From a virus, in the UHGV virus genome UHGV-1483955: a DNA stretch of 64,000 nt, one strand, 5' to 3'. The translations under genes were made by a program, and so were the position numbers. How positions within the stretch are numbered: the stretch's first letter is position 1; each line of letters opens with the position of its first letter. Shown here in pieces: positions 29,520 to 31,745 of this stretch. The notes below the pieces were generated by a model, which saw only the letters and a list, made by a program, of their open reading frames with translations, had not been told where the DNA came from and searched no databases.

Positions 29520-31534
29520 AAGAGCTGTGCTATGGATCTGTTTGCAGTGGAATTGAAGCCGCGAGTATTGCCTGGGAACCGTTGGGTATGCGTCCGGCGT
29601 GGTTTGCTGAAATCGAGCCTTTTCCATCTGCCGTTCTTGCGCACCGCTGGCCCCATGTCGCCAACCTTGGCGACATGACAAAACTTGCCAAAAAAGTCCT
29701 GGCTGGGGAAATCGAATCCCCTGATGTGCTCGTCGGGGGTACGCCTTGTCAGGCATTCAGTATCGCGGGCTTACGTGGTGGGCTTGATGATGAACGCGGC
29801 GCGCTAACTTTGAAGTATGTGGAGCTTGCAAATGCAATTGACGACAAACGGTCTGAGTCCTTCCTCAAACCGACAGTTATCGTCTGGGAAAATGTCCCAG
29901 GAGTCCTGTCATCGGCAGATAACGCCTTCGGATGTTTCCTTGCCGGATTGGCTGGAGAAGATGCGCCATTTGAACCAGGTGATCGACCTGAATCAGGAAA
30001 AAGTAACGCGTTCTGGCGGTGGGATGGCAAAACCGGTTGCCATGCTCCAAAGTGGCCGCAGTGTGGTTGTATTTATGGACCGCAGCGAAAGGTGGCCTGG
30101 AGAATCCTTGATGCCCAATACTTCGGAGTGGCACAACGACGCCGACGCGTGTTTGTTGTCGCAAGTGCTCGAACAGACCTCGATCCCGCAACGGTACTTT
30201 TTGAGTTCGAAGGCGTGCGCCGGAATATTGCGCCGAGCAGAGGCGAGGGGAAGGAAACTACCAGATATACTTCAAACATCGCTATCAGATCTTGCGATGA
30301 TACAAACATAGTTGCCATGGCACATGGGCAAGGAGGGGCTGAGATAAAAACCGATAATTCGGCACCAACTTTGACATGTAACCATGAAGCACCAATTGTA
30401 TTGCTCGTCGACGGTAGAATGCGCCGTCTTATCCCTGTCGAATGTGAAAGGCTGCAAGGTTTTCCTGATGGACATACATTGATCCCTACGGAAAAGCGTA
30501 AAAAAGTTTCTTCAGATGAACTGGCATACCTTCGCAAAAACTATCCTGATTTGAGCGAAGAAGAGGCCGCGATGCTTGCAGCTGACGGACCGCGTTACAA
30601 AGCGATCGGCAATAGTATGGCGATACCAGTAATGCGCTGGATTGGCGATCGGATTGCCAAGGCTGCATGTCGGCAGAAGGAAGGGAGTGAAACAAAAGAG
30701 CGAAAAGTTAAACCAGCGGCAGAATTCGAACGGTCCATATTCAAATGGGCTGGTGGAAAATTTGGTGTTCTGGAACAAATCTTTCGCTATTTGCCAGAAG
30801 GGAAGCGCCTGATTGAGCCTTTCGTTGGTGGCGGAGCTGTCTTCATGAATGCCGGATACCAGGAAAATCTGCTAAATGATGTGAATGCTGACCTGATTAA
30901 CTTTTACAAGACTCTGCAACGCGAGGCGCATTCACTTATCACTCTGGCACATCGTTTCTTCCAGGACTACAACACGCAGGAAGGATACCTGGCAGTACGG
31001 AATGCGTTTAACAAACAAGTCTATGATGATTTACATCGCGCAGCGGCGTTTTTGTTCCTGAACCGACATTGTTTTAACGGATTGACGCGTTACAACCAAG
31101 CCGGTGAGTTCAATGTCGGTTATGGGAAGTATAAAACTCCGTATTTCCCATTGCAGGAGATGGAAGCCTTCCTTGGTGCGGAAGGGCGTTCTGAGTTTGT
31201 ATGTGGTGATTTTGCTGCGGTGATTGAAGCTGCCGGAGAAGGAGATGTCATCTTTTGTGATCCGCCGTATGAACCGCTCCCAAATACAGAGGGATTCACG
31301 AACTATTCCGGTCATGACTTTAAGTTTGAAGAGCAAAAACGCCTGGCGTCTCTGTTGACGGATGCTCATCGCCGAGGTGCAAAGGTTCTCATTACTAACA
31401 GTGGCGCGCCAAACATCAGAGAACTTTATCAGGACAGTGGCTTCAGAGTGGAACCTCTTTTTGCCAGACGTTCTGTGTCTTGTAAGGGGGACACTCGAGG
31501 TGTTGCTCATGACGTTATAGCAATATTGCTCTAA
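29516..31534 (+). CDS. dmt: bifunctional DNA methyltransferase: N-terminal C5-cytosine MTase, C-terminal Dam-like N6-adenine MTase
   Basis: C5 motifs [12 protein letters not shown] and WENVPG; Dam motifs [21 protein letters not shown]; GTG start overlaps hrdC stop. Confidence 0.9.
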
Positions 31535-31552
31535 TAAATTTATTAGTGTAAT
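31525..31552. promoter_or_regulatory. bipartite C1 operator-like site at 3' end of dmt
   Basis: ATTGCTCTAATAAATTT overlapping an inverted partial copy (AAATTTATTAGTGTAAT). Confidence 0.55.
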
Positions 31553-31589
31553 ATCGCATCAATGAATCGTGATTTATAGAGCGATTTAG

Positions 31590-31745
31590 CTGTTAGCCGC
31601 GACAGGCGCGGCGGCAAGTATGGCGGGGTAGTGACTCCTTCCCCCTCATGACGCCGAGTTGCCAGGTTGACCATACGCCTAAGTGGCAACACCGAAGTGC
31701 GTTACGAGCTTCCAGTTTGCCCATCTTCGGGTGGGCGTTTTTTTC
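31590..31745 (+). ncRNA. candidate small RNA ending in intrinsic terminator
   Basis: Non-coding, hairpin GCCGCGACAGGCGCGGC near 5' end, terminator at 3' end; no ORF with ribosome-binding site. Confidence 0.3.
31719..31745 (+). terminator. rho-independent terminator
   Basis: GCCCATCTTCGGGTGGGC followed by TTTTTTT. Confidence 0.6.

Follow-up and report, generated by a model that had tools for sequence, protein, structure and literature searches.

The viral genome UHGV-1483955, analysed here as a window of 64,000 nucleotides (nt; the whole stretch of DNA studied), carries directly behind the DNA methyltransferase gene dmt (dam) an untranslated unit of about 31509-31745 that is probably the regulatory head of the ban operon of phages P1 and P7. 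Most likely, this unit specifies a candidate small RNA (sRNA), gated by the repressor C1 and made by transcription termination, and is at the same time the leader for the RNA genes and ban that lie downstream. It has been annotated before, in P1 (AF234172) and in AF503408, as the operator Op72ab/Obanab, the promoter Pban and a 'dicF-like region'; these records describe the same element, with no difference in operator or promoter. New here is that the likeness to dicF sits in an uncatalogued pseudoknotted RNA domain common to most Escherichia coli genomes, and that P1/P7 have their own variant of the module behind this domain. The 'dicF-like region', a misc_feature at 68791-68892 of the P1 record, corresponds roughly to 31649-31750 of the window, and the P1 annotation is silent on the RNA fold and on the likeness being to the sequence upstream of DicF, not to DicF.

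When 31553-31760 was compared by BLAST with 5,426 complete E. coli genomes, the full stretch was found only on P1-like plasmids. The part 31597-31694 alone is present, with about 82% identity, at 8,899 chromosomal places in 4,424 of the 5,426 genomes (median 2 and maximum 8 copies per matching genome); the chromosomal matches listed cover the domain part of the query and not the 3' module. The same block occurs in lambdoid, Shiga toxin (Stx)-converting and other temperate phages, and lies between ydfC and dicB in K-12-like strains. We built a model, R1, for the domain upstream of dicF; it matches the window at 31579-31706 (98.5 bits, E-value 4e-27), as a single copy in the 64 kb, and K-12 with 154 bits. 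In MG1655 (NC_000913.3) the match covers 1649244-1649370 and dicF starts 11 nt beyond it, at 1649382; the reference annotation of this strain has no feature between ydfC and dicF. Scanning with R1 gave one copy of the domain per related locus or element, and in the window, phage D6 and four unrelated phages it detected no second copy, only a remnant of 15 bits in D6. Rfam contains no family for the domain, and the DicF papers that we read do not mention it.

We collected 76 distinct copies of the domain from IMG/VR viral contigs, from one genome per species and from fetched loci. The species sampled were E. coli, E. albertii, E. ruysiae, Shigella, Citrobacter, Trabulsiella, Serratia symbiotica, Erwinia tracheiphila and Izhakiella, and the domain is spread over several genera of the Enterobacterales. 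Visual inspection dismissed pattern matches in Bellilinea, Terriglobales and Desulfobulbaceae as chance, and R1 was negative for them as well. About 10-20 nt 5' of the domain, the copies from Serratia, Citrobacter, Trabulsiella, Erwinia and Izhakiella (loci L142, L149, L152, L154 and L156) carry the boxA-like motif GTGCTCTCTTCG or a close variant (boxA reference, TGCTCTTTA); the same position reads GTGCGCTTCCGG in the E. coli copies, and P1/P7 have nothing similar there.

Across the 76 copies, five helices (P0 to P4) are supported, of which P0 is found in prophage copies only. The P1/P7-type rows of the alignment are non-pairing cells of this helix, and its 5' strand is also absent from two prophage copies and from a third that lies outside the counted alignment. 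Helices P1 to P4 can all be drawn in the window, with A57-A91 in helix P4 as the only mismatch. In the model-based alignment, 96.2% of the cells are paired, compared with 34-53% when the partners are slid; 13 pairs have changed on both sides, and none of 500 shuffles reached the observed values. Phages P1 and P7 differ by compensatory changes in helices P2 and P3 (the P3 hairpin of the window resembles that of P7, not that of P1), and in Izhakiella four consecutive pairs of helix P4 have been rewritten. Read on the other strand, the frequent G-U pairs would become A-C mismatches, indicating that the fold belongs to the plus-strand transcript. Since parts of P2 and of the P4 loop were prescribed in the search patterns, invariance at these places is partly by construction; copies found by BLAST alone fit R1 as well. 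Covariation thus shows that 31596-31692 is a conserved RNA domain of about 97 nt with four helices and a pseudoknot. Helices P2 and P4 may nevertheless be alternative rather than simultaneous pairings, as the 4-nt link between them looks too short to span a helix of 9 base pairs (bp). We also considered a tRNA-like reading of the prophage domain, with P0 as the acceptor and P4 as the T-arm, for which the topology fits a cloverleaf; it was not adopted, since a consistent CCA is absent, P0 is missing from P1/P7 and the P1/P7 copy yields no tRNA call with ARAGORN.

That the region instead encodes a small protein, as the automated annotation of phages JL22 and SJ46 has it, is extremely improbable. 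Three open reading frames (ORFs) of the ORF list overlap it, of 47 amino acids (aa) on the plus strand and of 49 and 111 aa on the minus strand, and 'hypothetical protein' coding sequences have been placed over the conserved domain in ON018986.2 (JL22), in KU760857.1 / NC_031129.1 (SJ46) and in several lambdoid phages; we regard these as probably false gene calls. The 47-aa frame (31648-31791) is the sole plus-strand ORF with an ATG; it has no Shine-Dalgarno sequence and its ATG is missing from P1. A Pfam search with the three ORFs gave no match, and substitutions in the domain track base pairing and not codon position, with the G-U pairs marking the plus strand as the functional one. Known RNA families do not account for the region either: at the gathering threshold and at E-values up to 10, no Rfam family covers 31561-31745 (matches to CcsR1, RyhB and nuoG were at chance level and were rejected), and neither ARAGORN nor Rfam detects a tRNA or transfer-messenger RNA (tmRNA) in 31525-31745, the only ARAGORN calls being three tRNAs downstream.

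The relation to dicF concerns the sequence upstream of this sRNA. With the Rfam model of DicF (RF00039; membership threshold 48 bits) there is no match in 31300-32700 even at E-values up to 10, whereas two Qin-type loci used as positive controls score 72.5 bits (L003) and 75 bits (L004), and we therefore rejected an identity with DicF. In Qin-type loci, the Rfam match for DicF lies 24 nt beyond the BLAST block, on its downstream side. As the block upstream of DicF matches and the DicF model does not, P1/P7 share the DicF-upstream element and not DicF. When the P1/P7 sequence is aligned with Qin, its 3' part (31693-31745) occupies the position of DicF, directly 3' of the domain, and ends in an intrinsic terminator. 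More generally, at least 74 of 79 copies have a GC-rich hairpin with a U-run within about 10-110 nt 3' of the domain. There are 28 distinct hairpin sequences, of roughly a dozen kinds, among which DicF is the commonest, and the genes downstream of the prophage copies are dicB or kil. Behind the domain there is thus nearly always a variable module, composed of a short stretch, a hairpin and a U-run, which takes one form in DicF and another in P1/P7.

DicF is produced by termination and RNase E processing, and read-through transcripts express dicB (PMC9438474, PMC5069750). The P1/P7 unit and the dicF cassette of Qin in K-12 are both untranslated stretches in a repressor-controlled early operon (under C1 in P1/P7 and DicA in Qin); they share the same domain and both include a short terminator-ending module that has to be read through for expression of the downstream genes (PMC9438474). 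They differ in that the P1/P7 module is unrelated in sequence to DicF, its terminator loop is a bare UUCG instead of a long seed-bearing loop, it has no detected complementarity to ftsZ (in a duplex test that was weak), and helix P0 is missing. Moreover, the P1/P7 domain lies 35 nt from the promoter, whereas the Qin domain lies in a long 3' untranslated region after three small genes. Two other modules deserve mention. The module loop of L037 (5642-5772, minus strand), GUUUCUCUCC, is perfectly complementary to GGAGAGAAAC at the ribosome-binding site of E. coli ftsZ, a better match to ftsZ than that of DicF. In L283 (1297-1460), from the Actinobacillus phage vB_Apl-pPE4, which otherwise looks like an E. 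coli Rac/Qin-type prophage, a module CCCCGCCACAAC...GGCGGGTATCC...CCCGCC-TTTTT is tandemly duplicated between the domain and kil.

In the predicted fold, the P1/P7-specific module is a hairpin of 5 bp, GAAGU-GCGUUACGA-GCUUC, followed by CAGUUU (31713-31718), which stays single-stranded up to the terminator. It is nearly invariant among the P1-like copies seen, takes the place of the 5' part of DicF, and is a candidate seed or Hfq site. CAGUUU, which is short, is the only U/A-rich single strand 5' of the terminator hairpin. The terminator stem has 7 GC-rich bp and a folding energy of -12.8 kcal/mol (z -3.8; no shuffle folded as well). Being Rho-independent and having a U-tail of at least 6-7, it agrees with what is expected of Hfq-dependent sRNAs. 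At the other end, the 5' leader does not fold better than its shuffles (z -1.2).

Transcription into the unit is set by a C1 operator and its overlapping promoters. The region flanking the unit is 96-98% identical to P1-family phages by sequence search, and 31553-31760 is 99% identical to P7 and 89.5% to P1. As in the P1/P7 records, the gene order is hrdC, dmt/dam (whose stop codon falls inside operator Op72a), the C1 operator and the non-coding stretch, continuing with tRNA-Asn, tRNA-Thr, the tci/terB genes, tRNA-Ile(CAT) and ban. The C1 consensus is an asymmetric 17-bp site, ATTGCTCTAATAAATTT; allowing up to 3 mismatches, the window has 13 sites where chance would give 0.31. Two of them, Op72a and Op72b, share 6 bp and so form a bivalent operator, which the P1 record names Obanab (formerly Op72ab) and places over P1ban and the predicted P2ban. 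Both promoters are annotated as sigma-70 in the P1/P7 records, and according to the P7 record the operator controls the tRNA genes and ban. The sequence 31523-31557 is base-for-base the same in the window, P1 and P7. Because the -35 element of P1ban, TTGCTC, matches the consensus at only three of six positions, a strict consensus scan missed this promoter; the element lies within operator site a, and the -10 element, TAATAT, within site b. Transcription from P1ban is predicted to start at about 31561, and the annotation of the P1 record suggests that C1 would repress at Op72ab in vivo. The other 11 operator-like sites of the window, with 1-3 mismatches (11624, 13294, 28249, 41959, 42866, 45583, 45632, 47724, 59166, 63440 and 63904), may mark further candidate C1-controlled units.

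A consensus scan of 31000-35000 revealed no other promoter-like site, and between Op72 and the start of ban the P1 record has P1ban and P2ban as the only ban-directed promoters, about 2.6 kb from ban in P1 and 3.2 kb in the window. With no promoter-like site between the terminator and the structured RNA and tRNAs behind it, the unit doubles as their leader. The bac mutations at Op72, which are operator-constitutive, render ban expression constitutive, and this requires read-through of the terminator.

These results agree in every point with an initial annotation made from the DNA letters, which had described a repressor-gated non-coding unit at this place with accurate coordinates, without identifying it as the unit known from the P1/P7 records. 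Its bipartite operator-like site right after dmt is the annotated pair Op72a/b, two overlapping C1 sites with zero and two mismatches, and the repressor control it had proposed is what the P1/P7 records give for ban and the tRNA genes. The GC hairpin it had pointed out is helix P1, the intrinsic terminator was recovered by scan and fold, and the sole plus-strand ATG frame indeed lacks a ribosome-binding site. It had left a choice between an sRNA gene and a regulated leader for the tRNA and structured-RNA array. The first is supported by the compensatory changes, the strand-specific G-U pairs and the position corresponding to the DicF cassette of Qin-type prophages (the sRNA itself being a candidate), and the second by the consensus scan; both readings fit and are not mutually exclusive.

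Table 1 Features of the unit at the head of the ban operon and of its surroundings in the window.
Feature	Position	Strand	Details and basis
dmt/dam DNA methyltransferase coding sequence	29516-31534	+	ORF list; annotated as dam in P7 and dmt in P1
Predicted promoter P2ban	31509-31540	+	-35 ATGACG 31509-31514; -10 TAAATT 31535-31540; 'predicted' in the P1 record
C1 operator Op72a (Oban-a)	31525-31541	+	ATTGCTCTAATAAATTT; exact consensus match; identical in P1/P7; annotated as protein_bind
Promoter P1ban	31526-31554	+	-35 31526-31531; 17-bp spacer; -10 31549-31554; mapped from P1
C1 operator Op72b (Oban-b)	31536-31552	-	ATTACACTAATAAATTT; 2 mismatches to consensus; P1/P7 annotation
5' leader	31561-31595	+	small hairpin (31563-31570 / 31581-31588) by predicted fold; invariant in P1, P7 and the window
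Conserved pseudoknotted domain	31596-31692	+	BLAST, model R1, covariation
Helix P0 (outer closing)	absent in P1/P7		GTTGTGGC / GCYRCAAC; prophage copies only
Helix P1 (hairpin)	31596-31612	+	GCCGCG-ACAGG-CGCGGC
Helix P2 (long-range)	31613-31623 with 31671-31679	+	AA bulge
Helix P3 (hairpin)	31624-31645	+	loop UAGUGACUCCUU; pyrimidine-rich loop (UCCUU / CUCC)
Helix P4	31656-31664 with 31684-31692	+	5' strand inside P2, 3' strand outside, giving the pseudoknot
P1/P7-specific 3' module	31693-31718	+	hairpin 31694-31712, then CAGUUU; alignment with Qin, fold
Intrinsic terminator	31719-31744	+	GCCCAUC-UUCG-GGUGGGC, G, U7; stem 31719-31725 / 31730-31736; seven U at 31738-31744; scan and fold
Structured non-coding RNA with tmRNA-style tag frame	31746-32209	+	fold z -3.7, homologs, conserved frame
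Tag, window	31806-31838	+	ANDDLMMVAA
Tag, SG01			ANDDLMLMAA
Tag, ECBP1			ANDDVVLMAA
Tag, Akira			ANDDVILMAA
Tag, Menlow			ANDNTFLAVA
tRNA-Asn	32210-32285	+	ARAGORN/Rfam; next operon gene
tRNA-Thr	32288-32363	+	ARAGORN/Rfam

Based on the operator sequence and its annotation, we propose that in a lysogen C1 bound to the overlapping sites would cover the -35 and -10 elements of P1ban and P2ban and keep the unit silent. On loss of C1, transcription from P1ban would start near 31561 and yield an untranslated RNA with a 35-nt leader, the 97-nt pseudoknotted domain, the 26-nt module and the strong intrinsic terminator. Termination at 31744 would release an RNA of about 184 nt whose 3' end is laid out like that of an Hfq-type sRNA. 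From its position and the homology of the upstream domain, this RNA would be the P1/P7 counterpart of the Qin-type dicF cassette, with another targeting module. Polymerases reading through would continue into the tmRNA-like RNA, tRNA-Asn, tRNA-Thr, the tci genes, tRNA-Ile and ban, and the unit would thus act as an sRNA gene and an attenuating leader at once. The domain itself would be a cis-acting scaffold inherited with interchangeable 3' modules, forming a stable, nuclease-resistant 5' body for the cassette; we favour this role because the domain is single per element and nearly always accompanied by a 3' module. In prophages, it might also define the limit beyond which the sRNA is freed by RNase E, which is the least certain step and one that we hold with considerable reserve.

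Several observations weigh against this proposal. A passive stabiliser would not need anything as elaborate as a pseudoknot with conserved loops. Phage D6 has the same terminator and everything downstream of it, and retains the domain only as the 15-bit remnant; the terminator may therefore belong to the P1/D6 backbone and predate the cassette. The hairpin may also do no more than end late dmt transcripts, because dmt lacks its own terminator. In unrestricted duplex folding, which yielded long spurious duplexes, the P1/P7 module paired with the ftsZ region from -80 to +60 no better than shuffles did (z +1.2/+0.4); this is a weak test because the DicF control itself reached only z -1.5. Among 333 start regions in the window, no target emerged, the best duplex having -26.9 kcal/mol compared with a mean of -26.2 kcal/mol for the shuffled minima. 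Finally, a literature search for P1 RNA-seq, Northern or Hfq data, or for 'dicF-like', returned nothing relevant, so a discrete sRNA is deduced from homology and architecture only. The D6 remnant, at 2179-2290 of locus L159, lies about 230 nt upstream of the shared terminator, and helix P4 and the 3' strand of helix P2 appear to be deleted from it.

In its strongest form, the doubt about the terminator would leave the unit with no function of its own, the hairpin being the terminator of dmt or late transcripts and the rest a spacer or a decayed prophage fragment. No other terminator lies between the end of dmt at 31534 and 31719, and P1 is a mosaic that may have acquired the domain by recombining with a lambdoid prophage. 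Yet 96% pairing has been kept through compensatory changes, with P1 and P7 having P3 hairpins that differ in sequence and both pair, the domain occurs in several Enterobacterales genera, and an annotated C1-controlled promoter points directly into it. We consider an absence of function very improbable.

The most serious rival to the scaffold role, although an unlikely one, is that the domain is a processive antiterminator RNA like put of phage HK022, which would ride with RNA polymerase past the terminator 30-50 nt downstream and past later ones. It would allow expression of the tRNAs and ban in P1, and of dicB or kil in the prophages. Like the P1/P7 domain, put is a structured nascent RNA that lies after an early phage promoter and before terminators, and neither has a protein partner encoded nearby; put provides a precedent of about 70 nt, cis-acting, protein-free and just after the promoter (PMC9378689). 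It differs in consisting of two stem-loops with a short triplex and no pseudoknot, and in being present in both early operons (PMC9378689), whereas the P1/P7 domain has 97 nt, four helices and a pseudoknot, is single and is tied to an sRNA-like module, with antitermination being putative. No sequence similarity to put was seen, and none was searched for. The layout in P1 suits an antiterminator: a promoter, the domain at +35 to +132, a strong terminator, and 3 kb of genes without a promoter-like site. In the prophages, a single terminator (a tandem pair in L283) stands between the domain and the toxic genes dicB or kil. An elaborate fold would be expected of an RNA that docks on a conserved machine, and the boxA-like GTGCTCTCTT stands just 5' of the copies outside E. 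coli, whereas P1/P7 have no such motif. On the other hand, there is a single copy per element and not one per early operon, the Qin copy is located behind ydfABC, at about 800 nt from where the first gene of the operon starts, and D6 keeps the terminator and the downstream array with a decayed domain. Stx-converting phages have N-type antitermination. The domain persists in them, where N-type antitermination should suffice and would make it redundant, and this is a further reason why we prefer a scaffold over an antiterminator.

Alternatively, the domain could be a sensor (a riboswitch, a thermosensor or a protein-binding attenuator) whose P2/P4 pseudoknot forms or melts on a signal and thereby sets termination or read-through. 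Helices P2 and P4 both covary and are possibly alternative pairings, and a place directly before a terminator is typical of attenuators. We found no alternative pairing of the domain with the terminator stem that is conserved, however, and the terminator stems are wholly different (GCCCAUC in P1/P7 and GGCGG... in the prophages) while the domain is unchanged; there is also no match to an Rfam riboswitch. A sensor is thus still less likely than an antiterminator.

Two other phage RNAs invite comparison with the sRNA that termination would release. StxS is reportedly an sRNA that arises by early termination of the late transcript of a Shiga-toxin phage. As in the proposed unit, a short phage transcript is said to be released at a promoter-proximal terminator that must be overridden for the operon behind it; StxS reportedly comes from a late promoter that is constitutive in lysogens, with the Q protein overriding the terminator, whereas the P1/P7 promoter is repressed in lysogens. 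To our knowledge, no antiterminator has been described for the P1/P7 unit. The second RNA, the C4 antisense RNA of immI (RF01695), is another small regulatory RNA locus of the window; Rfam places it at 11822-11907, together with its a1/b1 target sites (11701-11753). C4 is cut from a precursor by RNase P. It has another sequence and fold, and acts on the a1/b1 sites of its own operon. Rfam also identifies a hok/sok-type sok antitoxin RNA at 15364-15538 (112 bits).

The 464 nt between the terminator and tRNA-Asn form a much more stable fold than their shuffles, and in the window transcription gets to them only through the terminator. Their first ~180 nt (31746-31930) have relatives that are 70-84% identical in 258 phage records from unrelated families (Ackermannviridae, Drexlerviridae, Schitoviridae and lambdoid phages); the homolog loci include L162 (about 697-870), L163 (about 690-870), L164 (about 700-890) and L165 (about 690-860). 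All copies contain a frame of 10 codons that starts with GCA AAC GAT, ends with Ala-Ala and a stop codon, or with Val-Ala instead in Menlow and two IMG/VR contigs, and is conserved in 5 phage lineages. The last two tag codons vary synonymously between copies, and the stop codon lies in the loop of a conserved hairpin. The tag resembles that of E. coli tmRNA, ANDENYALAA. With the Rfam model tmRNA_permuted, all copies remain below the threshold (22-33 bits compared with 47); ARAGORN calls no tmRNA in this RNA, and a search for a canonical T-arm, acceptor or CCA partner gave none. After tRNA-Thr, a tRNA-like minihelix (32364-32450) presents a T-arm, AGGG-TTCGAAT-CCCT, within an extended stem CACAACAGGTAAGGG / CCCTTACCGTTGTG. 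The CACAACAGGTAAGGG stem recurs in another hairpin (31919-32015), which has a similar counterpart in the Salmonella phage Akira (L165, about 858-945).

In summary, for P1 itself the unit carries modest weight: the ban operon would open with a candidate regulatory RNA made only once C1 repression is lifted, and everything downstream in the operon depends on passing a strong terminator. More broadly, DicF, which is among the oldest known bacterial sRNAs, is one of about a dozen interchangeable 3' modules on a domain supported by covariation. We suggest, as a conjecture that is less likely than not, that the domain represents an undescribed class of cis-acting RNA that serves a swappable sRNA cassette by setting termination versus read-through, or processing. 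If so, this class would be present in P1/P7-type plasmid prophages and, in about four fifths of E. coli genomes, in prophages of the Qin/Rac type. At induction, the start of the ban operon would then deploy RNAs that are jointly gated by C1: the candidate sRNA, the tmRNA-like tag RNA and the tRNAs. The domain may bear on how prophage sRNA cassettes arise and on how transcription reaches the toxic genes behind them.

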